Source: a virus
Length of the DNA: 64,000 bases
IMG/VR virus record: IMGVR_UViG_3300028920_001457
Span: 13,444 to 77,443 of that record
Reading direction: 5' to 3' (one strand)
The position numbers and the translations under genes are program-made. Under the pieces are notes generated by a model. The model was not told the origin of the DNA. It saw only the letters and a program-made list of their open reading frames with translations, and did no database searches. Positions 7,574 through 29,692 of the stretch are shown here, in pieces (within the stretch, counting starts at the first letter, position 1; each line of letters starts with the position of its first letter).

Positions 7574-7867
7574 TTAAATAGTGTTAAATTGATTCAAATC
7601 AGTCAAAATATATTCACCGCTTTTTATCTTTGCCTCAGTCTCTTTTTTTGTTTCATTTAAAAACTGATTACGATATTTACCGGTTGTTACTGAATAATCC
7701 CAGTAACTTTCATCAATCTGAATTTTACCGCTAAGTGGTTTGAATGCTATAATACTATTATAAGACTGAAAATAACATCCCTTGTCTGTAAATAACCTGA
7801 ATTGATTTCTAACAGGATCACCGTTAGTATTTACAAACTGTTCTACTTTACAATTAATTGATTTCAT
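7574..7867 (-). CDS. hypothetical phage protein
   Basis: FQSYNSIIA...WDYSVTTGKYRNQFL segment. Confidence 0.7.
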   Translation of the reverse strand: MKSINCKVEQFVNTNGDPVRNQFRLFTDKGCYFQSYNSIIAFKPLSGKIQIDESYWDYSVTTGKYRNQFLNETKKETEAKIKSGEYILTDLNQFNTI

Positions 7868-8053
7868 AACATTTGATTTTAGGTTAATACTAATTTATTA
7901 ATTCATTTGAGCCGTTGCGGGTAACGATCCCGCCAAAAGCTCCAGAGAACGGCTAATTTCCACTAAAGTTCTAAAAGACAGTTACAATAATACATACTAT
8001 TACCGCACCTATCAAATAGACTTTAATAATTAAGTTAACAATTTTAATACGTT

Positions 8054-8308
8054 TCATAATTTTATGGTTTTATAATGGTTTAAGTTCACTTCAAGCAAAT
8101 CACATTTGTCGCGCCTTGCTTTCATTTCTGCGTTAATAATGGCCCGTTGTTGATTATCTTCCATGAAAGATTCAACGCCGGGATCGGCCAATATCTCACA
8201 ACTCAAACAGTCAATATTATCAGTTAATTGAGCTATTTTAGTCATCTTACCGTTTTTCAATTCATTATAGTTTTTATAAATGCCATAATGATAAGTAACT
8301 GTTTTCAT
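8054..8308 (-). CDS. hypothetical phage protein
   Basis: 84 aa ORF. Confidence 0.6.
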   Translation of the reverse strand: MKTVTYHYGIYKNYNELKNGKMTKIAQLTDNIDCLSCEILADPGVESFMEDNQQRAIINAEMKARRDKCDLLEVNLNHYKTIKL

Positions 8309-8533
8309 ATCTTTAATTTTTTGGTTAATTTACACCCGCATAGTTTTGTAAATACGGGCGCTATCATTATTTACGCGGACTTTAGACCGCCAAAAGACTC
8401 CAAAGAACGGCTAAAGAATAGTAAAAACAACAGCCAGGATGCACGCTAAAGCTAAATACAAATAAACTGCATATTTAACTACATTTAAAAATACTTTTAT
8501 AACTTTCATAGTTTAATAAATTAATGGTTAATA

Positions 8534-13057: not shown

Positions 13058-13546
13058 TTATGTTAAATAGTCATTGTTCCATGTTGATTTATTTGTAATA
13101 TAGTCAACCCATTCCCATGTTTTCCTGGCTTTTTTTATGTCTTTGTCTGAGTAATAAAGATACCATAGCACCATTTCCCAATATAGGTCTTCGTCGTCTA
13201 CGGAGGCCACCCACCACGAACAGAACTGCCATCCGAAAAACCATATCTGAAATGACGGCGACCACTCAAAACGCGGTGTGCCATACTTGTCTTTCCATCC
13301 CAAACCATACCTGACAACCGCCATAGGCCAGCCATAGCTTATATCATAACCAAACAACCTGATGTAACTACATCTTAAAAACTTTGGTCTTTTCTTGCGT
13401 ATTGTAAGTATAGTTCTGTTAAAGTTCCATGGGTCAAAATATGGTGTGCCATGTCTTATTCTACCGAAGTAATACCTCTTGCGGGGTAACACGAAAACCC
13501 CGTCAATCTGTTTCAGTATCTTTTTAAAGCTTTTCATCAGTCCCAT
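13058..13546 (-). CDS. hypothetical Trp-rich phage protein
   Basis: LGWKDKYGTPRFEWSP segment. Confidence 0.7.
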   Translation of the reverse strand: MGLMKSFKKILKQIDGVFVLPRKRYYFGRIRHGTPYFDPWNFNRTILTIRKKRPKFLRCSYIRLFGYDISYGWPMAVVRYGLGWKDKYGTPRFEWSPSFQIWFFGWQFCSWWVASVDDEDLYWEMVLWYLYYSDKDIKKARKTWEWVDYITNKSTWNNDYLT

Positions 13547-20780: not shown

Positions 20781-21500
20781 ATGCCAAAATCAAAGACAAA
20801 AGACTGCCAGGGGATAAGTCTTAACAAAAGACGCAACAGGTGGGAGGTTACTATTATCTATAAAAGGAAGCGCTATTATTTGGGTTCTTATCACAACAAA
20901 AAGATTGCACGGGCTGTATGGGAGTCCAAGAGAGATGAATTTTATGGGACAGAATCAGTACTCGACTTGCGTGGCGAGGTTTGGATTAAAATGGATAAAC
21001 ATAAGGGGGAATATTATGTTAGCAATAAGGGGCGAGTAAAAAACCTAAATTTTAAGGGCATGGGCTACGAAAGATTGTGTGGTATCATACCTTCGCATGG
21101 CTATAATCAAGTAAAGATAAATAGGGAGAGTTATTCTATACATCGGTTAGTTTTACAATATTTTAAGGGAGAATCCGACCTTCCGGTTAATCACAAGGAC
21201 GGAAATGGAACAAATAATATTTTAGAAAACCTAGAGTATGTTAGTCAGCGGATTAATGGTTGCCATGGTTATTTTGTTGTGAACAAAAGAAATGTCCTAA
21301 CGGGGGCACATTGGGATAAGTGGAATAATAGTTGGCGGTCTGAAATAAACATTAATGGTAGATTGGTATATTTAGGGTCTTTTAATACATCCATAGAGGC
21401 ATGCGATAGATACTTACGGGCATTATTGGATTATGGCCTTCAGGATGATTATGATTATATTGTCGAAATGATTGGACATAAACCCCATGTCGGAAATTAG
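20781..21500 (+). CDS. HNH homing endonuclease (NUMOD4, HNH and AP2-like domains)
   Basis: GEVW...YYVSNKGRVK, HRLV...VNHKDGN..NN..ENLEYV, YLGSF. Confidence 0.88.
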   Translation: MPKSKTKDCQGISLNKRRNRWEVTIIYKRKRYYLGSYHNKKIARAVWESKRDEFYGTESVLDLRGEVWIKMDKHKGEYYVSNKGRVKNLNFKGMGYERLCGIIPSHGYNQVKINRESYSIHRLVLQYFKGESDLPVNHKDGNGTNNILENLEYVSQRINGCHGYFVVNKRNVLTGAHWDKWNNSWRSEININGRLVYLGSFNTSIEACDRYLRALLDYGLQDDYDYIVEMIGHKPHVGN

Positions 21501-21580: not shown

Positions 21581-22117
21581 ATGTTAGCATTAATTCAAGC
21601 AACCCGGTGGGAAGATCGTAGGGATAGTTCATTCCGAGTTCACCCACTTGATTTACACAAGGATTCGTATAGATATTTTCTTATCAATCCGAATCGAATT
21701 ACAGAGATGAAGGTTGATGCCGCCACGGGGGGCAGCTACTTCAAATTTTCTGATAATCACCGAGATCGCCGTGAAGGAAATTCCGTTGTATGGTGTAATA
21801 GCACTGTAAGTGAGCTACAAGTCGCGCACGACACGGCCTATGCGTCTAATTTTGTGACACTTCCGTTCTTTCCGAAAAACGACCCAAACAGGACGCCCGT
21901 AGATACGACTATTGATGTTTCAGACATAGCCTATTTTTGTGAATACAACCCCGATCCAGATAATTATGTGTGGTTGGTGCACAATTCTAAGGCTTTTAAA
22001 AGAAAAGAGCAATTAGTCAACCTTAATCTTGATGAGGCAGAGGATATTGTAGAGACAGGTACTACAAGTACGACCACTACTTCTGAGGCAGAGACCACAA
22101 CTACACAACACCTGTAA
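21581..22117 (+). CDS. hypothetical protein, paralog of 22136-22600 and of the N-terminus of 62756-63835
   Basis: FLINPNRITEM...AHD...FVTLP..PKND shared pattern. Confidence 0.75.
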   Translation: MLALIQATRWEDRRDSSFRVHPLDLHKDSYRYFLINPNRITEMKVDAATGGSYFKFSDNHRDRREGNSVVWCNSTVSELQVAHDTAYASNFVTLPFFPKNDPNRTPVDTTIDVSDIAYFCEYNPDPDNYVWLVHNSKAFKRKEQLVNLNLDEAEDIVETGTTSTTTTSEAETTTTQHL

Positions 22118-22135
22118 CATTAAAAGCTATTTGAT

Positions 22136-22600
22136 ATGTTATTTGTTACGAGCGTAGATATATGGACGAGCAAAAAGCCCGCTAAGTTACTTAAGGATGC
22201 TTGGGGGACTTATTTCCTGTTAAACACTAATAGGATAATTGAGATGAGGGTCAAGGGTACTGATGATACTAAGTTTTGGTATGCACAAGACCCTGACGAT
22301 GCACGGGATAGCCCCGACTATCTGGAGTGTGGTGCTTCGAGGGCTGTCATCACGGCATGGCATGATGCTACCGCAGACAGCAAGTTTGTTTCTTTGGACA
22401 TATTTCCCAATATGGATATAACGCAAACGGCTGTGGCGACGACAATAGAATGGGCGGACATTGCCTATATTTATCAGACCTACAGGGATGTGTTGGATAA
22501 TGTAGCCCACATGACATATTATGCCAATGCTTTTCAGAGGGTTGAGTGTATTATAGAACACAACCTGCTTGGGATATTGGCGTTACAGAACGCACATTAA
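22136..22600 (+). CDS. hypothetical protein, paralog of 21581-22117
   Basis: FLLNTNRIIEM...WHD...FVSLD..PNMD. Confidence 0.75.
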   Translation: MLFVTSVDIWTSKKPAKLLKDAWGTYFLLNTNRIIEMRVKGTDDTKFWYAQDPDDARDSPDYLECGASRAVITAWHDATADSKFVSLDIFPNMDITQTAVATTIEWADIAYIYQTYRDVLDNVAHMTYYANAFQRVECIIEHNLLGILALQNAH

Positions 22601-22630
22601 TACCATTACGAAATTCTATCATAAGAAACG

Positions 22631-22656
22631 ACCCGTCAGTGATGGCGGGTTTTTTA
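22631..22656 (+). terminator. intrinsic terminator
   Basis: ACCCGTCA-GTGA-TGGCGGGT followed by a T run. Confidence 0.8.
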
Positions 22657-22690
22657 TTGTGTATTGTAATATAAAATAATTGCGAAAATA

Positions 22691-22722
22691 TTTGGTGGAT
22701 TCAAAAACATGTTTTATATTTG
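22691..22722 (+). promoter_or_regulatory. Bacteroidota primary-sigma promoter
   Basis: TTTG, 20 nt spacer, TATATTTG. Confidence 0.75.
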
Positions 22723-22743
22723 CAGAAGTTCTTTGAAGGTATA

Positions 22744-22943
22744 ACCGACAAATGGGGTTCCTATAAAAATACAATTGGATGTAAATTACCCCCCGCCGGT
22801 TTTCGATACGAGACAAAGAGAGTTCCTATAGACCCTGTAAAGGGTCAGCCTCTTAAGCTGATATTTACTCTCCGTCTTTTTATTTTTAATAGGTAAAGGG
22901 TGTTCCTATACAAATCAATGCTTATGATAAATACACCCCACTT
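22744..22943 (+). ncRNA. three tandem copies of a structured RNA motif with invariant GUUCCUAUA
   Basis: covarying stems; see findings. Confidence 0.65.
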
Positions 22944-22957
22944 TTAAAATAAATAAC

Positions 22958-24712
22958 ATGAATACTTTAAGGTTATTCAATGCGGTAATCGCAAAAGAAT
23001 CTACAGAAAAACCCTTCGTTTCAGAAGAGGGATTTATCATTGAATCAAATGCTCTTTGGGCAAAAAATAGGATATTGGAATTCTATCTCAAGGAAAAGTT
23101 AAGTGGTAACGATCTTAACAAAACATTTCACAAATCATGGGCTAAAATTAAAAACAGCTCTCGGTTTGAATTGTTTGTTGAGCAGATATTTCATTATATT
23201 TCTACATACGGAAGTGATTTTCAGGACGAAATATATATTCCCGATGAAGTATTAAATGTACCTGACGTAAAGTTGTCATACAAGGTTGTCCGTGCATATT
23301 CCAAGGAGGAAATGACGGATAAGTGTTTATCACTATTAAAATCAGGTATAGCATTAAAGGAGGAAACAATTAATGAGGTGTTATCGGTGCTTGTTGAAGA
23401 ACTGGATTATTCCTTTACGGGAAATGAGAAAATCAGAAACAAAGAGGCTGTTATAAAAATAGCAGATATTTATGGCGTTCTGCCCAATGACACCATGGAG
23501 TTTTTCAGATATATTATATATCGGGCTACGGGGCAGTCTCTTCTTATTAAGAGCAATGATTTGATAATGAAAATTAAAGAAGGGAATTATAATCCGTCGG
23601 TTCAGTTTAATAAATTCGGATTAGAAAAATTGGCAACGATATTTAATCGTTTTAAGCCATTATTCTTGGCATTTAAACCCAAGTGCGGAAAAACGATCAA
23701 TAAAATTGCGAAGTTGTCTAAAAAGTTTCATAAACCTCTCGTTGTCAACCCCCTTAATACCGCAACAAGTGAGCTGATGGGGGATGATGATAGACATTGG
23801 TTGGATAATGCTACGCCGTACGCTTTATTTAAAGTATTATCGGCATGTTATACGAGAGCGAGCGGCCAAGAGTCTTTCGTTTATCGGATTAGAAACGGGA
23901 AATCCTGGGTCAAGGAAAAGGAAACTATTTTGAGGGTGAACAAGTTAAATTTTGATTTCATTATAAAGTATCTGAAAGAAAGATATGATTTATCAGAAAA
24001 GAAATTCTTTTTGCCTGCTGATATAAAATATGCCCTTCCTACATCAGAAAAAATGTTTGTTGGCAATATTCCCACAGGAACGAGATTTTATGGCAGGAAG
24101 TTGGCGGTTGGGATATATTGGGAGGACGCATGGGGGGCAAGAGACCTCGATCTTTCGGGGTTGACGCTTTCAGGGCATAAGGTTGGTTGGAATGCAGAAT
24201 ATGATTATGGCGAAGGACAATTAATGTATTCTGGCGATATTACATCCGCCCCCAATGGTGCGGTAGAGTACCTGTATGCCAACAAAGGGCTTCGGGAATC
24301 GGTTTTAATAAAAAACAATGTTTATTCGGGAAGTAATGAATGTGATTATAAAATCGTTATTGGGTTGGGGGATAAGATTTCTGTGGATTATATGATGAAC
24401 CCAAATAATCTTTTTATAGAAGTCAAATGTAAGTCCGTACAAAAACAGACCATATTGGGGATTCTTACTCCAAAGAAAATGGGGCAGTGCTTTGTATTGC
24501 TTAATTTTGGGGCGGGACATGTAAGGGTGTCGGGCAACAGTAAGATATCTAATATCGCCCTTAAGTCACTATATGAACAATGGAACAAACCGTTTTCATT
24601 TAATAAATTGATTAAATTATTGGGGGCGCAGATTGTTGAAAACAAAGAGGATGCAGATTATGATTTCTCGTCTGATAATTTAGAAAAAGATTCTTTTATT
24701 AAGATATTTTAA
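22958..24712 (+). CDS. large hypothetical protein with C-terminal TerD-like domain
   Basis: GIYW...RDLDLS...YSGDITSAPNGAVEY motif; helical N-terminal half. Confidence 0.7.
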   Translation: MNTLRLFNAVIAKESTEKPFVSEEGFIIESNALWAKNRILEFYLKEKLSGNDLNKTFHKSWAKIKNSSRFELFVEQIFHYISTYGSDFQDEIYIPDEVLNVPDVKLSYKVVRAYSKEEMTDKCLSLLKSGIALKEETINEVLSVLVEELDYSFTGNEKIRNKEAVIKIADIYGVLPNDTMEFFRYIIYRATGQSLLIKSNDLIMKIKEGNYNPSVQFNKFGLEKLATIFNRFKPLFLAFKPKCGKTINKIAKLSKKFHKPLVVNPLNTATSELMGDDDRHWLDNATPYALFKVLSACYTRASGQESFVYRIRNGKSWVKEKETILRVNKLNFDFIIKYLKERYDLSEKKFFLPADIKYALPTSEKMFVGNIPTGTRFYGRKLAVGIYWEDAWGARDLDLSGLTLSGHKVGWNAEYDYGEGQLMYSGDITSAPNGAVEYLYANKGLRESVLIKNNVYSGSNECDYKIVIGLGDKISVDYMMNPNNLFIEVKCKSVQKQTILGILTPKKMGQCFVLLNFGAGHVRVSGNSKISNIALKSLYEQWNKPFSFNKLIKLLGAQIVENKEDADYDFSSDNLEKDSFIKIF

Positions 24713-24713
24713 T

Positions 24714-24721
24714 TATCTTTG
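24714..24721 (+). promoter_or_regulatory. -7 promoter box for tRNA operon 1
   Basis: TATCTTTG, 4 nt before the leader ATG; no clear -33 box. Confidence 0.7.
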
Positions 24722-24725
24722 CACC

Positions 24726-24788
24726 ATGATTAGAATACAGCATATAGAGCAACCGCAACAGCCAAGAGCCGATATTGGGTCTGGATAG
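24726..24788 (+). CDS. attenuator leader peptide 1, MIRIQHIEQPQQPRADIGSG
   Basis: codons 4-13 are only Ile(ATA), Gln, His, Glu and Pro, the tRNAs of operon 1. Confidence 0.85.
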   Translation: MIRIQHIEQPQQPRADIGSG

Positions 24789-24811
24789 GTGTTCTATGTG
24801 TTTATAATACA

Positions 24812-24844
24812 GAGCCTTCTGGACTATTTCAGAGGGCTTTTTTT
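24812..24844 (+). terminator. attenuator terminator 1
   Basis: GAGCCTTCTGGA-CTAT-TTCAGAGGGCTT plus T run, ending 4 nt before tRNA-Pro. Confidence 0.85.
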
Positions 24845-24848
24845 ATTT

Positions 24849-24921
24849 CGGAAGTATGGTGTAATCAGGTAGCATACGTGCCTTGGGCGCACGGGGAGTA
24901 GTTCGAATCTAATATTTCCGA
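24849..24921 (+). tRNA. tRNA-Pro(TGG)
   Basis: CGTGC-CTTGGGC-GCACG anticodon arm; acceptor CGGAAGT/ATTTCCG. Confidence 0.9.
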
Positions 24922-24927
24922 CAATAT

Positions 24928-24999
24928 TGGCACATAGGTTAATGGTAAGACCTCTCGGCTTATACCCCAGCAGTCCAAGTTCGATTCTTGGTGTGCCAA
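24928..24999 (+). tRNA. tRNA-Ile(TAT)
   Basis: loop CTTATAC; acceptor TGGCACA/TGTGCCA resembles tRNA-Ile(GAT). Confidence 0.85.
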
Positions 25000-25000
25000 C

Positions 25001-25075
25001 GGTGGTTATGGTGTAATGGCAACATAACTGTTTGTGGAGCAGTGGTTATCAGTTCGAGCCTGATTAATCACCCCA
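25001..25075 (+). tRNA. tRNA-His(GTG)
   Basis: loop TTGTGGA, G-1:C73 pair, encoded CCA. Confidence 0.92.
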
Positions 25076-25076
25076 T

Positions 25077-25147
25077 GCTCGGTTCTTCTAACGGCAGGAA
25101 ATCGGGTTTTCACCCCGGCAATAGCGGTTCAATTCCGCTACCGAGTA
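25077..25147 (+). tRNA. tRNA-Glu(TTC)
   Basis: TCGGG-TTTTCAC-CCCGG. Confidence 0.9.
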
Positions 25148-25153
25148 CGATAA

Positions 25154-25224
25154 TGCCTTGTGGTGTAATAGTAACACATAACACTTTGGATGTTATGTTT
25201 TCGGTGCGAATCCGAACAAGGCAT
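25154..25224 (+). tRNA. tRNA-Gln(TTG)
   Basis: TAACA-CTTTGGA-TGTTA; U1:A72. Confidence 0.9.
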
Positions 25225-25233
25225 CAAAATAAA

Positions 25234-25264
25234 TTTGGAAATTTAAAAATATGTATTATCTTTG
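25234..25264 (+). promoter_or_regulatory. promoter for tRNA operon 2
   Basis: TTTG, 19 nt spacer, TATCTTTG. Confidence 0.8.
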
Positions 25265-25283
25265 TACCAATAAAAAACAAAAA

Positions 25284-25358
25284 ATGCAGTTAGTCAGAAA
25301 GAATATGGTGAATATTGACCGCACAGGCGCAACCTTGCGAGGGGGTATTCCTATATGA
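25284..25358 (+). CDS. attenuator leader peptide 2, MQLVRKNMVNIDRTGATLRGGIPI
   Basis: codons 4-17 cover all 11 tRNAs of operon 2 and nothing else. Confidence 0.88.
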   Translation: MQLVRKNMVNIDRTGATLRGGIPI

Positions 25359-25379
25359 TTTCTGTAAGAAACAACAGGG

Positions 25380-25408
25380 ATGCCCTCAAGAGATTGGGGG
25401 CATTTTTT
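25380..25408 (+). terminator. attenuator terminator 2
   Basis: ATGCCCTCAA-GAGA-TTGGGGGCAT plus T run, ending 2 nt before tRNA-Ile. Confidence 0.88.
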
Positions 25409-25410
25409 AT

Positions 25411-25481
25411 TGGCTCATAGTTTAATAGTAGAACGCATCTCTGATACGGATGTAGCCTAAGTGCGATTCTTAGTGAGCCAA
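25411..25481 (+). tRNA. tRNA-Ile(GAT)
   Basis: CATCT-CTGATAC-GGATG. Confidence 0.88.
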
Positions 25482-25485
25482 CAAT

Positions 25486-25558
25486 AGCGGGTTGTGTAGA
25501 AATAGTATCTCGTCAGTCTCATAAGCTGAAGTTATGGGTGCAATCCCCATACCCGCTA
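25486..25558 (+). tRNA. tRNA-Met(CAT), elongator-type
   Basis: TCAGT-CTCATAA-GCTGA; paired 1:72; Ile2 identity not excluded. Confidence 0.8.
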
Positions 25559-25562
25559 CAAT

Positions 25563-25634
25563 GGGAATATGGTGAAATGGGTATCACGATGGACTGTTAA
25601 TCCTTCGTTATAGGTTCAAGTCCTATTGTTCCCG
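25563..25634 (+). tRNA. tRNA-Asn(GTT)
   Basis: loop CTGTTAA, G73. Confidence 0.9.
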
Positions 25635-25638
25635 CAAA

Positions 25639-25710
25639 GTCCTTGTGGTGTAATGGAGAGCACAAGTGTCTTCTAAGCATTTAGTCAGGGTTCGACTCCT
25701 TGCGGGGACA
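25639..25710 (+). tRNA. tRNA-Arg(TCT)
   Basis: AGTGT-CTTCTAA-GCATT. Confidence 0.9.
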
Positions 25711-25716
25711 CTAAAT

Positions 25717-25791
25717 ACCCTTGTAGGCTCCTTGGTGGAGAACCAGATTGTCACTCTGGTAAAACAGACGGATCGTAACCGTTCAGGGGTG
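25717..25791 (+). tRNA. tRNA-Asp(GTC)
   Basis: CCAGA-TTGTCAC-TCTGG, G73. Confidence 0.85.
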
Positions 25792-25796
25792 CAAGC

Positions 25797-25869
25797 GGGT
25801 TGCAATGTACCAAGGCTGGCGAGAGACCCTTGCAAGGTTTTTGGCTCGGTTCGATTCCGAGGCGATCCA
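25797..25869 (+). tRNA. tRNA-Ala(TGC)
   Basis: loop CTTGCAA; G3:U70 identity pair. Confidence 0.88.
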
Positions 25870-25872
25870 CAA

Positions 25873-25944
25873 GCAGGATAGGTGTTGATGGTTGCATAAG
25901 AGCCTTCCAAGCTCAAGGAGTGAATTCGAATTTCACATCCTGCT
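25873..25944 (+). tRNA. tRNA-Gly(TCC)
   Basis: loop CTTCCAA, U73. Confidence 0.88.
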
Positions 25945-25948
25945 CAAT

Positions 25949-26023
25949 GGGCGATTAGTTTAATGGACAGAATATATCGCTACGGACGATATGGTGAGGA
26001 TTCGATTTCTTCATCGCCCACCA
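25949..26023 (+). tRNA. tRNA-Arg(ACG)
   Basis: TATCG-CTACGGA-CGATA, encoded CCA. Confidence 0.9.
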
Positions 26024-26025
26024 AT

Positions 26026-26097
26026 GACCCTATAATTTCAACAGTAGAATCCCATCCTTTTAAGATGGTTGTCTTGGGGCGGAACCAAGTGGGGTCA
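26026..26097 (+). tRNA. tRNA-Lys(TTT), atypical T-loop
   Basis: CCATC-CTTTTAA-GATGG; T-loop GGCGGAA. Confidence 0.8.
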
Positions 26098-26101
26098 CAA
26101 A

Positions 26102-26173
26102 GGCAGGTTAGTTTAAGCGGCAAAACACGTGATTTGTAACCATGAGATACGGCTTCGATCGCTGTACTTGCCT
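26102..26173 (+). tRNA. tRNA-Thr(TGT)
   Basis: loop TTTGTAA; acceptor GGCAGGT/ACTTGCC. Confidence 0.82.
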
Positions 26174-26178
26174 CAAAT

Positions 26179-26251
26179 AGCCCGATAGTGTAGCGGTTAA
26201 GCACGGCACCCTTACAAGATGTCAGCCACAGTTCGAGTCTGTGTTGGGCTA
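26179..26251 (+). tRNA. tRNA-Val(TAC)
   Basis: loop CTTACAA; canonical D and T arms. Confidence 0.88.
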
Positions 26252-26269
26252 CAAAAAAACATAAATATA

Positions 26270-26300
26270 TTTGTTTATTTAAAAATTATTATTAATTTTG
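26270..26300 (+). promoter_or_regulatory. promoter for tRNA operon 3
   Basis: TTTG, 19 nt spacer, TAATTTTG. Confidence 0.8.
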
Positions 26301-26306
26301 CAGATT

Positions 26307-26369
26307 ATGAAAAATCTATGGTGTTCATATAGTTTATTTTCACTCTTGCTCTTGAGGCGAGGCGGATAA
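26307..26369 (+). CDS. attenuator leader peptide 3, MKNLWCSYSLFSLLLLRRGG
   Basis: codons 4-16 cover all 9 tRNAs of operon 3 and use only those amino acids. Confidence 0.9.
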   Translation: MKNLWCSYSLFSLLLLRRGG

Positions 26370-26393
26370 ACTATATCTACCAAAGATATATTG

Positions 26394-26421
26394 AAGCCTC
26401 GCTTATAAAGCGGGGTTTTTT
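26394..26421 (+). terminator. attenuator terminator 3
   Basis: AAGCCTCGCTT-ATA-AAGCGGGGTTT plus T run, ending 5 nt before tRNA-Leu. Confidence 0.88.
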
Positions 26422-26426
26422 GTTAT

Positions 26427-26499
26427 GGGGAATTGACGTAAATGGCAACCGTATTGGGTTTAAGCCCCAAGTTTGAGAGTTCGAATCTCTTGTTCCCCA
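26427..26499 (+). tRNA. tRNA-Leu(TAA), short variable loop
   Basis: TTGGG-TTTAAGC-CCCAA, A73. Confidence 0.85.
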
Positions 26500-26502
26500 C
26501 AT

Positions 26503-26575
26503 GGTCGAGTGACGTAACAGGCAACCGTATCCGTCTCAAAAGCGGAGTTTATGGGTTCGAATCCCATCTTGACCA
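26503..26575 (+). tRNA. tRNA-Leu(CAA), short variable loop
   Basis: TCCGT-CTCAAAA-GCGGA, A73. Confidence 0.85.
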
Positions 26576-26579
26576 CAAA

Positions 26580-26652
26580 GCTCAGGTAGTAAATTGGCAA
26601 AGCAACTTGACTTAGGATCAAGGATTTGTGAGTTCGAGTCTCACCCTGAGTA
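26580..26652 (+). tRNA. tRNA-Leu(TAG), short variable loop
   Basis: CTTGA-CTTAGGA-TCAAG, A73. Confidence 0.85.
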
Positions 26653-26656
26653 CTAT

Positions 26657-26748
26657 GGATGGCTAAACCACAGTAGGTCTAAGTGGGACGGTCTTGAAAA
26701 CCGTAGGTCGCTCAACACGGCGTGTAAGTTCGAGTCTTACGCCATCCG
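26657..26748 (+). tRNA. tRNA-Ser(TGA)
   Basis: ACGGT-CTTGAAA-ACCGT, long variable arm, G73. Confidence 0.9.
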
Positions 26749-26752
26749 CGAA

Positions 26753-26835
26753 GGGACGGCTTGGCATTAGTGAGCCTAAGAGTCTGTAAAACTCCCGCTT
26801 CGGCTGTGGTGGTGCAAATCCATCTCGTCCCACCA
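26753..26835 (+). tRNA. tRNA-Tyr(GTA)
   Basis: loop CTGTAAA, variable arm, encoded CCA. Confidence 0.88.
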
Positions 26836-26836
26836 A

Positions 26837-26919
26837 GGAGAGTAAATCATCAAGGCGATGACTACGCCCGCTAAGCGATAGGTTCTGAAAGGAATGGGAC
26901 TCGGGTTCTCTGCTCTCCG
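26837..26919 (+). tRNA. tRNA-Ser(GCT), divergent
   Basis: acceptor GGAGAGT/GCTCTCC, G73, loop CCGCTAA, variable arm; irregular T arm. Confidence 0.7.
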
Positions 26920-26924
26920 CAAAC

Positions 26925-26994
26925 AGGGATACCCATTGGAGTGGTAAGCGGTCTCCAAAACCGTGATTTGAATGTTCGACCCGTTCTATCCCTG
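26925..26994 (+). tRNA. tRNA-Trp(CCA), reduced D arm
   Basis: GCGGT-CTCCAAA-ACCGT, G73. Confidence 0.82.
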
Positions 26995-26998
26995 CTAT

Positions 26999-27075
26999 GG
27001 AGAAGTAGCTGAGTCGGTTCAAGCGTCGGACTGAAAATCCGAAGTAGATGAGTTCAATTCTCATATTCTCCACCA
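26999..27075 (+). tRNA. tRNA-Phe(GAA)
   Basis: TCGGA-CTGAAAA-TCCGA, encoded CCA. Confidence 0.92.
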
Positions 27076-27076
27076 A

Positions 27077-27143
27077 GACCCAATAAAAGCACAAAACGTG
27101 GTTTGCAAAACCATGGGGGACGGTGCGATTCCGTCTTGGGTCT
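27077..27143 (+). tRNA. tRNA-Cys(GCA), apparently lacking a D arm
   Basis: GTGGT-TTGCAAA-ACCAT, perfect acceptor and T stems, U73. Confidence 0.78.
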
Positions 27144-27181
27144 CTAATATATTTCTTACCTTTGCATAAAACAAGAATAGT

Positions 27182-29692
27182 ATGGGCAAGAAACAACCGC
27201 CAAAGGCAGAAAAGAAACTTTCCTTTGAAACAGACTTTGAGTTACAGGAAGAAACCCGCCTAAAGCTACGTCCCGAAGATATAGTAAAGATAAAAGAGGA
27301 AGCAGGCAAACTACCCGATGACTTTAATCCTTATGGGAACTATATGCCCGAAAAACTCAGATTTCTGGGCGACGAACCACCCCCAAACACCAAAAGATTT
27401 GTTGGAATAAATGTGGATGATGATGATCTGACACCGATTTATGTAAGCACACCCGCCCCCCCGCCGAAAGAATTAATAGATTATCACGACCTACCACCCA
27501 CAGAACAATATTGGCGGCGTATGGAAGTACCCAAACGACTGCATAAATTAGAAGAGAGAGCCTTCCTTGCGCTATTTGAGGTAGAAAGAAGAAACAGGCA
27601 GGAAACAGTACAGGGCTATAGGATTTATCAGAAATATTGGGAAATATTAGAAGCAGAACAGGATAAATATGCGGAAGAGATAGCATGGATAAAAAAGATG
27701 TGGTGGTACAGGACTAACGGCTATTGGTTCTATAATGATGGCGAACCCGCCTATTGTACTGGTGAATATTTTGATTATCTTAACTTTTGGTATATAAAGG
27801 ATGGTGAGACACATGTGGAATTCAGGGAAGAGGATCGGGTTATTTCTATTTTTTCACATTATCTAAGAACAACAACCGAGTCTTTCGCCAACATAAACCC
27901 CACCACGGGTAGGGCAATGAAAAATAAAGATGGCAAGTATGATATGGTGGATGTCGGTGCAAGAGTATTTTTCGGTGACATGAAACCGAAATTCAGGAGG
28001 TGTGGGGAAACGCAATGGGCGTGTCACGGGATATGGCTTGGTGCGAGTACGACACCCGCCGCTTATGGTACTATCATATCCATGGATGGTGAAAACGCAC
28101 AAAAGCACTATTACAAAAAGCTAATACCCGCATGGAATAAATATCCTATGTTTCTCAAGCCAATATGGATGGGTACGAAACGTCCCACAAATATTAAGTT
28201 GATAGAACCACCCAATGTATTTAATCCCAATATGGAGGGATTGGGTTCTAATATTGATTATACAGAAAGCTCCGGGGTGTCGAAGAATGATGGTGATACA
28301 TTACATTTTTGTCTCTCAGACGAGGAGGGAAAAAGTAAGTCACCTATAGCCGAAAGGTGGAGTGTAAATAAGATAGCTATGTCAACGGGTGGTGGGTCTA
28401 ACATCCTTAATAACGCTTATGCGTGGCATCCGAGTACCGTTGAGGATATTGGTGACGGTGCGCCAGAGTATTTTAAAATGTGGCAACTATCTAATTTTTA
28501 TGAAAGGATACCCATACTTGGGCAGACACACTCGGGGTTGGCAAGGATTTTCATTCCCGCATATAAGAAACTCGAGGGTTTTATTGACAGGTGGGGTAAG
28601 TCGGTATCGGATACACCAACGAAACGACAGATAAAATACAGTCCACGAGCCAAATTTGCACTCACGGGCAAGGGTGCAAGGGAAACACTACAGGCAGTTC
28701 TTGATTCCTTGTTAGCCAAGGGGACACCCGAGGCACTTGAGGCATACAGGTCAAGGCGCAGAAAGTTCCCGATGAAGTCGGCAGATGCATGGTTGGGGAG
28801 TTCGGGTAATGTGGGTTTCAACCTTGAGATAATAGACAAGCGTATAGAGGAACTCAATAGGATAAAGTCTTTTGGCAAGATGAATTATAAAACCGGGTAT
28901 TTTTACAGGGAAAACAATCATCCACAGGGCGATGTGTTGTGGCGTACAGACCTCGACAACCCCAAGTTTATCATGTCCAAGGACTTACCACAGGAATTAA
29001 CCAACAGAAGGAGTGTGGTCGACTTTTACGATGGTCTCAGGCAACAGTGGAAGAAATCATGGACACCAGTAGACGGATATAAATTCACCCTTGGGGTGGA
29101 TATGTTCAGAAATCTATCGCCCGTAGAGGCAAAACAGGCATCTAAATTTGGGGGATTTACCAATAACTCCCGCCAGAGTAATGGTGGTATAGCTATTCTA
29201 TGGGAATATGATTCAGAATATCCCGATAGTGGCAGGTGTGTATTGTCGTATAATTATCGTCCATCGACACAAAAAGAGTTTATGGATGATGTTCTTATGG
29301 CGGCACAGTATTTCGGGGCAATGATATATCCCGAACAAAACGTAGAGCGGTTTATTGAGTATATGTTTGATGAGGGCTATGGCGGGTATGGGCTTTATGA
29401 TATTGATTTGGTAACTGGTAATATAAAGAAACTACCAGGGCGATATACTACAAAAGAAAGCCTGCAAGAGATGTTCAGGGAATATAAGGACTATATAGAA
29501 CGTAAGGGTGCGGAAGAAGAACACGATGATTTGCTAATGCAGATGAAAAACATACGTGGGGTAGAAGATGCTACACGTAATGACCTTTTCGTTGCTTTCG
29601 GTATGTGTCTTCTTGGAAGTAAGTCCCGTGTCAGGGAAATTATAAAGCGTGAAGACTTTGGTGAGGCAATAGCAATAGACGATATTTTTTAA
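27182..29692 (+). CDS. terL: terminase large subunit (crAss-like type)
   Basis: KFRRCGET Walker-A variant, LSDEEGK Walker B, LGVD nuclease motif, RND near the C-terminus; directly upstream of portal. Confidence 0.88.
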   Translation: MGKKQPPKAEKKLSFETDFELQEETRLKLRPEDIVKIKEEAGKLPDDFNPYGNYMPEKLRFLGDEPPPNTKRFVGINVDDDDLTPIYVSTPAPPPKELIDYHDLPPTEQYWRRMEVPKRLHKLEERAFLALFEVERRNRQETVQGYRIYQKYWEILEAEQDKYAEEIAWIKKMWWYRTNGYWFYNDGEPAYCTGEYFDYLNFWYIKDGETHVEFREEDRVISIFSHYLRTTTESFANINPTTGRAMKNKDGKYDMVDVGARVFFGDMKPKFRRCGETQWACHGIWLGASTTPAAYGTIISMDGENAQKHYYKKLIPAWNKYPMFLKPIWMGTKRPTNIKLIEPPNVFNPNMEGLGSNIDYTESSGVSKNDGDTLHFCLSDEEGKSKSPIAERWSVNKIAMSTGGGSNILNNAYAWHPSTVEDIGDGAPEYFKMWQLSNFYERIPILGQTHSGLARIFIPAYKKLEGFIDRWGKSVSDTPTKRQIKYSPRAKFALTGKGARETLQAVLDSLLAKGTPEALEAYRSRRRKFPMKSADAWLGSSGNVGFNLEIIDKRIEELNRIKSFGKMNYKTGYFYRENNHPQGDVLWRTDLDNPKFIMSKDLPQELTNRRSVVDFYDGLRQQWKKSWTPVDGYKFTLGVDMFRNLSPVEAKQASKFGGFTNNSRQSNGGIAILWEYDSEYPDSGRCVLSYNYRPSTQKEFMDDVLMAAQYFGAMIYPEQNVERFIEYMFDEGYGGYGLYDIDLVTGNIKKLPGRYTTKESLQEMFREYKDYIERKGAEEEHDDLLMQMKNIRGVEDATRNDLFVAFGMCLLGSKSRVREIIKREDFGEAIAIDDIF

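Follow-up and report, generated by a model that had tools for sequence, protein, structure and literature searches.

A tandem array of handle-and-cargo RNAs paired with a TerD-fold protein beside a phage tRNA cluster: probably an undescribed counterpart of Ro60 and Y RNA

Introduction

What is the purpose of three similar structured RNAs placed directly ahead of an unnamed protein gene, at the edge of a phage tRNA cluster? The question is raised by positions 22744–24712 of a 64,000-nt stretch of the IMG/VR virus record IMGVR_UViG_3300028920_001457 (positions 13,444 to 77,443 of that record; the whole stretch is called the window, and coordinates without a prefix refer to it). In this locus three tandem RNA modules are followed by the gene of a 584-aa protein and then by an array of 22 tRNAs. 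We found that the modules and the protein constitute a dedicated pair spread over phage and bacterial genomes, and that in many relatives a module carries a tRNA-like insert. In our opinion, these small RNAs and the protein rather probably form a particle that is a functional analogue of Ro60 with its Y RNAs and is directed at tRNA damage or at tRNA-targeting defences.

More than 250 bacteria and phages encode Y RNAs with tRNA-like domains beside Ro60, and in M. smegmatis both Y RNAs are processed from one precursor located upstream of rsr (PMC4201824). The Ro60 protein (Rsr, composed of TROVE and vWA domains) is accompanied by YrlA, YrlB, or Yrn1 RNA, belongs in Salmonella to the rsr-yrlBA-rtcBA operon, and is also encoded by phages (PMC4201824, PMC7790460, PMC12135203). 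It was with this system that the first-pass annotation of the locus, made from the sequence alone, had loosely compared the modules.

RNA Modules

We call the conserved part of a module its “handle” and the variable insert in its loop the “cargo”. Read from 5' to 3', a module consists of a lower stem of 4–6 bp, three unpaired residues (AAA), an upper stem of 6 bp with GU at its end, the sequence UCCUAUA, the variable insert, a U, the upper-stem partner starting with AC, a single unpaired C, and the lower-stem partner. The first-pass annotation had described a shared lower stem, AAA, upper stem, invariant GTTCCTATA and variable insert, all of which are in the sequence; its coordinates and its upper-stem pairs (GGGGT/ACCCC, GAGAGT/ACTCTC, and GGGTGT/ACACCC) are correct; absent from it was the conserved unpaired C, which stands between the upper and lower 3' strands and faces the AAA. 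Across relatives, the handle is represented by an ANA/C internal loop, invariant G-C and U-A pairs closing the upper stem, and a junction with single-stranded UCCUAU(A/U) on one side and a lone U opposite. K-turns were considered and rejected as a description of the modules, because the bulge has no tandem G.A pairs after it.

The three copies in the window (57, 69, and 53 nt long, with inserts of 21, 35, and 21 nt) form one repeat family with a 19-nt core GACAAA-N5-GTTCCTATA, 79–100% identical and located at 22747, 22812, and 22892; GTTCCTATA itself occurs four times in 64 kb against 0.69 expected, and three of the four occurrences are in the array. Module 1 (22744–22800, plus strand; 53.1 bits, E 4e-13 with the covariance model R1 described below) has its lower stem at 22744–22749/22795–22800, AAA at 22750–22752, the upper stem UGGGGU/ACCCC(C) at 22753–22758/22788–22793, and UCCUAUA at 22759–22765. 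Its cargo makes a mini-hairpin, UACA-AUUGGA-UGUA (22770–22783), with a UUGG motif, and compensatory changes in this module are seen in relatives at 86–90% identity. Module 2 (22810–22878, plus strand; 42.2 bits with R1) has the upper stem GAGAGU/ACUCUC at 22818–22823/22867–22872 and a cargo of two hairpins. The first of them, GACCCU-GUAA-AGGGUC (22831–22846), covaries with its counterparts in the relatives L158 and L159 (C-G to G-C), while the second (22845–22861, plus strand) resembles an anticodon arm, with a 7-nt loop CUCUUAA (22850–22856) and a stem of 3–5 bp (up to UCAGC/GCUGA), the first two bases of which compete with hairpin 1.

Module 3 (22891–22943, plus strand; 54.9 bits with R1) has the upper stem GGGUGU/ACACCC at 22898–22903/22933–22938 and a nearly invariant lower stem, (u)AGGU/ACUU. 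It is this AGGU...CACUU module that adjoins the ATG in the relatives L001, L005, L007, L008, L017, L076, L122, L135, L081, and L158–L161. In the closest relative (L158, 90% identity; L158:367–447), the cargo of module 3 has an additional hairpin-forming insertion of about 25 nt and the handle is unchanged, so cargo is gained or lost between very close relatives.

Folded one at a time, the modules give z-scores of 0.04, −2.99, and −0.78 (modules 1, 2, and 3; the minimum free energy of module 2 is −22.1 kcal/mol). Since these single-copy folds are unimpressive, the case for the structure is based on the comparison with relatives.

Conservation of the Motif and Its Pairing with the Protein

The loci of relatives were found using an alignment of 13 protein sequences, the closest of them (L158–L161) coming from metagenome contigs. 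Already in the first three homolog loci from IMG/VR, GTTCCTATA copies were present just upstream of the gene. About 70 motif instances were parsed, 50 of them with short inserts were aligned, and the covariance model R1 was built on the motif. In these 50 instances pairing holds for 96.5% of the cells, with covariation in 9 of 11 pairs. The upper stem, on which the instances were chosen, is paired in 99.7%; for the lower stem, which was not a selection criterion, the figure is 92.8%, and each of its five pairs covaries. A second set of instances, from metagenomes (93 distinct of 103 in total) and independent of the building of R1, gave practically the same picture: pairing in 96.6% of cells and covariation in 9 of 11 pairs, a level that none of 500 shuffles reached; controls in which the positions were slid are only 38–54% paired. 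The covarying stems reported in the first pass are reproduced in two sets of instances, and the conservation of the motif structure across relatives is far beyond chance.

Over the window and the whole virus record of 77,443 nt, R1 matches the three modules and nothing else. When three complete genomes of 4.9–5.9 Mb were searched, no match was scored except at the locus. Beside the homologs, R1 gave 102 matches in 45 of 63 non-redundant IMG/VR loci, 61 matches in all 20 diverse bacterial genome loci, and 103 matches in 41 of 42 metagenome loci outside the model, the lone locus without a match having no upstream sequence present. Every match in the viral, genome, and metagenome loci is on the strand of the gene. 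The first-pass annotation had made its idea dependent on finding the motif near homologs, and there it was found, down to about 30% protein identity.

The co-occurrence of the RNA and the protein is strict. Among 61 genomes of one bacterial family, both were found, adjacent, in the same two genomes, and neither was found in the other 59. Two cultured cyanophages, S-CRM01 (g174) and S-CBWM1 (gp22), have kept the pair at a protein identity of 33–36%. In relatives whose protein is 74–90% identical, each of the three modules can be aligned base for base, and compensatory changes are seen; an extra, tRNA-like first module is present in L161 and L001. The copies within a locus, one to five in number (single-module loci also exist), are unlike one another and yet individually conserved. 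These data show that the RNA–protein pairing is dedicated.

Such a pair was not found among the described systems. The Rfam 15 scan of 22000–27500 (E<=10), a search that the first-pass annotation had recommended, gave nothing in 22700–22950, and no such family is present in Rfam 15. No Rfam family, Pfam, NCBIfam or PADLOC model, nor the searched literature, describes the RNA–protein pair; one paper mentions both TerD and RtcB, separately.

Cargo

The cargo is the part in which a relation to tRNA becomes visible. In the loci L002 and L003, the handle loop contains, in order, the 3' strand of an anticodon stem, a T arm, the 3' strand of an acceptor stem, a short cap, the 5' strand of the acceptor stem, a D arm, and the 5' strand of the anticodon stem. 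In L001, L005, L012, L014, L017, L026, L076, and L135, a tRNA-like gene of otherwise ordinary appearance has its anticodon loop exchanged for the handle, whose own lower stem is capped by a loop. In three dimensions, the two circularly permuted layouts amount to the same thing, a long handle bearing a tRNA body, and this agreement points to folding of the RNA. A tRNA-like module is present in at least 40 of 80 genome loci (strict regular expression).

Smaller cargos look like parts of a tRNA. The UUGG loop of module 1, which in our reading resembles a D-loop, occurs in 20 of 123 short cargo loops from 19 loci, among them S-CRM01, whose loop is almost the same as in the window. T-arm-like cargos with UUCGAGU/C loops were counted in 50 cases. 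A 4-bp stem with a 7-nt loop of the anticodon form (YUNNNRN) is found in 23 of 172 cargos, compared with 2.8 ± 1.7 in shuffles (maximum 8).

In the second hairpin of module 2, where the window has CUCUUAA, the relatives at 74–90% identity have CUUUUAA. Judged by its letters, CUUUUAA is the anticodon loop of tRNA-Lys(UUU), and the U-to-C change in the window gives the other lysine anticodon, the form of tRNA-Lys(CUU). The CUUUUAA hairpin with a 4-bp stem occurs once per locus in 42 of 170 loci, and its density is 2.7 per kb of cargo vs. 0.0085 per kb outside, i.e., about 300-fold higher. Five different stems close this loop across Chryseobacterium, Winogradskyella, a Bacteroidia metagenome-assembled genome, the window's clade, and S-CRM01.

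Partner Protein

The gene at 22958–24712 (plus strand) encodes a protein of 584 aa from a large unnamed family, for which a word-indexed search gave at least 2780 homologs; clustering at 50% identity gives 1370 representatives. Members of the family are about 600 aa long and are encoded by phage contigs and by chromosomes of Flavobacteriia, Cytophagia, and Chitinophagia. The protein has no meaningful match in Pfam, PHROGs (function), NCBIfam, PADLOC, or PDB sequences, the latter searched with the single sequence and with a profile of 69 sequences; from the ESM Atlas only unnamed or “TerD family” clusters, below 0.9, were obtained. Structure prediction had also been recommended in the first pass. 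The AlphaFold2 model from 69 sequences has a predicted local distance difference test score (pLDDT) of 91.9 and a predicted template modelling score (pTM) of 0.90, and it is divided into two domains.

The C-terminal domain (residues ~378–538, 24089–24571, plus strand) is a beta-sandwich of the TerD fold by structure match: VIA gives Z 10.2 to 2qz7_B (root-mean-square deviation 3.0, 140 residues aligned) and Z 9.7 to K. pneumoniae TerD 2kxt, and Foldseek gives a probability of 1.00 with template modelling (TM) scores on the target of 0.55–0.58. The residues D396, D398, S425-G426-D427, and E437 are invariant here, and we read these DxD and SGD-type acidic motifs as resembling the calcium sites of TerD. 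The N-terminal domain (residues 1–350, 22958–24007, plus strand; pLDDT 90.8 when modelled alone) is mainly helical, has the invariant residues N161, E163, N248, H258, and R312, and many of its basic residues are conserved. No Ro60, with its ring of HEAT-like repeats, is among the listed fold matches of the N-domain model (VIA wide, Foldseek PDB). Neither TerD nor TROVE of Pfam matches any of 69 family members (E<=0.01), and the window protein has no TROVE match at E<=1, the TROVE model recovering the control proteins. The label “TerD-like” given to the protein in the first pass is therefore valid at the fold level for residues ~378–538; it does not extend to the N-domain or to the Pfam TerD model.

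Two further structure matches of the N-domain, in BFVD (probability 1.00, TM 0.32–0.41), are A0A8S5LVH0, a “putative tellurium resistant like protein” of an uncultured siphovirus, and H6SUA9, an uncharacterised 695-aa protein of Campylobacter virus IBB35. According to these matches, the architecture may extend beyond the phages of Bacteroidota and cyanophages.

Genomic Context

In bacteria, the pair resides among genes for RNA repair: within 6 kb, RtcB is encoded in 65 and RlaP in 53 of 80 genome loci, the majority of which belong to a single genus. In Chryseobacterium, the order is a WYL/WCX regulator, HopJ, RtcB, a tRNA-like module with three further modules, and the protein. The Tenacibaculum locus runs from RtcB through an RF-1 domain protein, a TPR protein, the modules, and the protein to an RNase T-like exonuclease, and that of Marivirga reads Hen1, Pnkp, DUF5677, the modules, the protein, DUF5677, and RlaP. 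The two DUF5677 genes of Marivirga (L122:4592–5635 and 7791–8474) flank the RNA array and the protein gene, and DUF5677 may be a further partner in this lineage.

In phages, the neighbours can be tRNAs. Of the 63 viral loci, 20 have tRNAs within 2.5 kb, 11 of these with at least three; RtcB was not found in the phage loci (2.5-kb flanks). The homolog genes of S-CRM01 and S-CBWM1 are both within a tRNA cluster. Arrays of 6–19 tRNAs are also alongside the pair in 6 of 20 sampled bacterial genome loci, which are probably prophages.

In the window, the gene upstream of the array (22136–22600) is closed by an intrinsic-terminator-like hairpin with a T run (22630–22651, plus strand; 9-bp stem, five GC pairs), so the array begins a new transcription unit. 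Its promoter (22691–22722, plus strand), which is conserved as a box upstream of the array in close relatives, is of the Bacteroidota type, following the consensus of Bacteroides promoters: TTTG at −33 (22691–22694), a 20-nt spacer, and TATATTTG at −7 (22715–22722). The TTTG-N20-TATATTTG pattern, in its general form TTTG-N17-23-TAnnTTTG, is found 17 times in the window vs. 4.0 expected; many of the occurrences extend to TTTGGAAAT..AAAA....T.TTAnnTTTG, seemingly a class of promoters specific to the phage. As the first-pass annotation had stated, all three modules lie between this promoter and the ATG, which is at 22958, 14 nt past module 3, and the stop codon (24710–24712) is followed after 1 nt by a promoter-like box, TAtcTTTG (24714–24721, plus strand). 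This box stands at the head of the tRNA array and is the only −7-like box visible there.

The array of 22 tRNAs (24849–27075, plus strand) begins 137 nt past the stop codon and is the context of the pair rather than a part of it. ARAGORN detected 18 of the tRNAs; Rfam or inspection added a tRNA with the CAU anticodon (25487–25557), Gly-UCC (25873–25944), Ser-UGA (26657–26747), and Trp-CCA (26924–26994). The large terminase is located after the array.

Discussion

We propose the following scheme. The promoter at 22691–22722 would drive one transcript, in which three small RNAs are followed by the mRNA of the 584-aa protein. The protein would bind the handle via its conserved basic helical N-domain, and the TerD-fold C-domain may supply a metal-dependent or partner-binding surface. 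Cut from the leader, the RNAs would act in trans as a ribonucleoprotein presenting tRNA-like cargo: D-loop-like, T-arm-like, or a whole tRNA body in relatives, and a mimic of the Lys-type anticodon arm in the window. The particle may work in tRNA damage control, in bacteria together with the neighbouring RtcB, Pnkp/Hen1, and RlaP, whereas in phages it would act beside the phage's tRNA set, probably against the tRNA-cleaving defences of the host. The fixed position of module 3 beside the ATG leaves room for translational feedback besides the trans role, and the protein may also throttle its own translation there.

We take the pair for a probable, hitherto undescribed counterpart of Ro60/Y RNA; so far as genomic data go, it works like this system without being a member of it. 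The likeness suggested in the first pass has gained support from the tRNA-like inserts of relatives, from the RtcB, Pnkp/Hen1, and RlaP neighbours in bacteria, and from the tRNA clusters in phages. In both systems, which are found in bacteria and phages, the protein gene has one or more small RNA genes beside it in the same orientation, each RNA combines a conserved stem (the protein site, here putative) with a variable module, and RtcB repair genes may be nearby. One RNA per locus is often a tRNA mimic with a permuted T arm, a capped acceptor stem, and a D arm; the RNAs can come from a precursor upstream of the gene, as would be the case here; and the protein has a helical domain and a metal-binding domain, the latter putative in our family. 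The differences are no less clear. There is no Pfam signal of TROVE or vWA in the window protein or its 68 relatives, its C-domain is a TerD beta-sandwich and not vWA with the metal-ion-dependent adhesion site, and the modules have no match to the Rfam models Y_RNA or YrlA. The characteristic RNA element is UCCUAU at the junction of stem and loop, unlike the GNCGAA / GGUCCGA stem motif of the Y RNAs, and arrays of up to five modules are usual.

A true TROVE gene is present in one of the carrier genomes (Chryseobacterium genome G001, which contains locus L076; contig C34:172177–172908), and no TROVE match was found in three other carrier genomes. Mutual exclusion of the pair with Ro60 is ruled out by this gene.

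Several observations weigh against a Ro60-like particle. It is established that the RNA fold is conserved, that the RNA and the protein are a dedicated pair, that the cargo resembles tRNA, and in what contexts the genes lie; binding, processing, and function are inferred. No RtcB is encoded in the window's virus record (about 77% complete), and the count of RtcB neighbours in bacteria comes mostly from one genus, Chryseobacterium, so that the independent events are far fewer than 65. The window has no whole tRNA-like module: its modules are not RF00005 cloverleaves, as neither the Rfam tRNA model nor ARAGORN has a tRNA match in 22700–22950. Eighteen of the 63 viral loci have no R1 match, eight of them being cut near the gene and most of the others belonging to distant homologs. 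The N-domain has no recognised RNA-binding fold (the best matches are VIA Z 5.4 over 67 residues and Foldseek PDB E 0.059), and TerD domains are not known to bind RNA. Finally, all the modules in the window are within the 5' leader with no terminator between, and a T run (at least five T in 8 nt) follows only 42 of 160 modules; with no terminators, freeing the RNAs would need processing by a nuclease. The same count of T runs, together with a scan that shows no terminator after the window modules, excludes the modules as intrinsic terminators or attenuators.

A more specific variant may be offered tentatively, and we consider it doubtful in its present form: the particle would serve tRNA-cleaving nucleases as a bait or decoy, with the handle anchoring the displayed tRNA parts to the TerD-fold protein. 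On display would be the anticodon arm of tRNA-Lys, whole tRNA bodies, and hairpins resembling the D-loop or the T arm. Beside the replacement tRNAs of a phage, such a particle would soak up or sense tRNA-targeting defences of the host, and in a bacterium the neighbouring repair genes (RtcB or Pnkp/Hen1) would be recruited or activated once the bait is cut. There is a background for this suggestion. The AriB nuclease of PARIS cleaves tRNA-Lys, and phage T5 counters it with its own tRNA-Lys (PMC11464382); phage tRNA sets, including tRNAs with altered anticodon loops, have been proposed to counter tRNA-targeting defences (PMC10264068), and retrons are evaded by means of phage tRNAs (PMC11555353). 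With the phage counter-defence tRNAs, our system shares the location of the gene and the RNAs in or beside phage tRNA clusters and a cargo that copies the anticodon loop of tRNA-Lys, a reported target of anti-phage nucleases. It differs in that the modules are not decodable tRNAs and are tied to a dedicated protein, and a decoy role would be hypothetical here.

The arrangement in the window could also be explained by a purely cis-acting leader, in which the modules are operator sites in the 5' untranslated region for the translation or stability of their own mRNA, are bound there by the protein or by a ligand, and neither give free RNA nor have a function in trans. The window and most of its close relatives have the array between the promoter and the ATG, with no terminator separating the modules from the gene. 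The last module, with its fixed lower stem, is 14–21 nt from the start codon, a site at which occlusion of the start region, which in Bacteroidota lacks a Shine–Dalgarno sequence, would work, and a cis-regulatory RNA would likewise co-occur strictly with one gene family. Nevertheless, we regard this explanation as rather unlikely, since the position upstream of the gene is not obligatory. In the loci L060 and L063, the array is directly past the stop codon (the genes that follow in L063 are oppositely oriented), and L025 is similar; in L002 the modules begin about 0.8 kb beyond the end of the gene. S-CRM01 has one module past the stop codon of the homolog, while in S-CBWM1 one module is located between tRNA-Pro and tRNA-Glu, within the tRNA cluster and 2.5 kb from the gene. 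Such downstream and detached arrays favour free small RNAs over a purely cis-regulatory leader. Against the leader are also the permuted layouts, which use tRNA ends as the ends of the RNA, and the occurrence of one to five unlike copies, each with a conserved and different cargo; tRNA ends are natural substrates of RNase P and RNase Z. From these observations, we argue that the modules are RNA genes and not only a leader.

Tandem structured RNAs ahead of a protein gene bring to mind the type III toxin–antitoxin systems (ToxIN, CptIN, and TenpIN), where ToxI RNA is processed and bound by ToxN. By analogy, our protein would be a toxic or effector enzyme, with the RNA repeats serving as its bound and processed antidote. 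As in these systems, the array is directly upstream of the protein gene and co-transcribed with it, the pair occurs in phages and in islands beside stress or repair genes, and the invariant polar residues of the N-domain could form an active site. Several features make such an explanation very unlikely. The copies are not near-identical repeats but share the handle only, with a 19-nt core of 79–84% identity; single-module loci and downstream arrays exist; the cargo mimics parts of tRNA, for which the toxin–antitoxin model has no role; and the protein, at 584 aa, is large, has no match to a PADLOC defence model, and shows no nuclease fold of the ToxN/AbiQ type or any other among its listed matches.

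In protein-dependent tRNA splicing elsewhere, RtcB is the ligase. That the handle segment is a signal of tRNA intron excision or processing, after which RtcB would ligate the halves into functional or circular tRNAs, can be practically dismissed: the handle does stand at the exact site of anticodon-loop introns in L001, L005, L012, and L076, in L002 and L003 it lies between permuted halves of a tRNA, and RtcB is the commonest bacterial neighbour, but on inspection the joined flanks (3–8 nt on the 5' side and 7–15 nt on the 3' side, both A/U-rich) give no 7-nt loop with U33 and a purine at 37 in a consistent register, the acceptor stems of the permuted forms are capped by short loops, and most modules, including all three in the window, are without tRNA halves.

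The family may also be compared with TerD itself. The C-terminal 160 residues share the beta-sandwich of the TerD proteins from ter operons (PDB 2kxt, 2qz7, 3ibz). In contrast to them, our family has no Pfam TerD match, no TerD was retrieved in the profile search of PDB sequences, and the domain is fused to a 350-residue N-domain that is absent from TerD. The ter genes (TerB, TerC, TelA, and the vWA proteins TerF/TerY) are not nearby in the window, L076, L122, or L135, and the protein is partnered with RNAs, a partnership that to our knowledge has not been reported for TerD. Since at least one defining feature fails for Ro60/TROVE, for TerD (by sequence), for the type III toxin–antitoxin systems, and for tRNA, the pair is a member of none of these.

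The system is widespread, the same RNA–protein pair being present in hundreds of phage and bacterial loci beside tRNA clusters or RNA-repair genes, on Bacteroidota chromosomes, in many uncultured phages, and in cultured cyanophages. If the interpretation as a Ro60-like particle is true, the design of Ro60/Y RNA would have evolved a second time, independently, from an unrelated protein and an unrelated RNA family. The TerD-fold domain would acquire its first RNA-linked role, the contest of phages and bacteria over tRNA integrity would have a new player, and unannotated gaps in phage tRNA clusters would be accounted for. The modular handle-and-cargo design could be used to display RNA. Culturable carriers exist, including Chryseobacterium species and the Synechococcus phages S-CRM01 and S-CBWM1.

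Some minor observations concern the surroundings of the pair. The 22-tRNA array of the window covers 18 amino acids; tRNA-Lys and tRNA-Cys were not found in it, and the upstream module 2 has a Lys-type anticodon loop, a combination that may be a coincidence. A gene resembling HNH homing endonucleases (20781–21500; NUMOD4 + HNH_3 + AP2; phrog_99, E 9e-33) is located 1.2 kb upstream of the RNA array, and in S-CBWM1 endonuclease genes are likewise found within the tRNA cluster beside the homolog. In the gaps of the tRNA array (26329–26423 and 24741–24849), there are sub-threshold matches to Rfam leader-peptide attenuators, Trp_leader (30.0 bits, E 0.0038) and Phe_leader, and a terminator-like hairpin (24811–24840) stands just ahead of the first tRNA.

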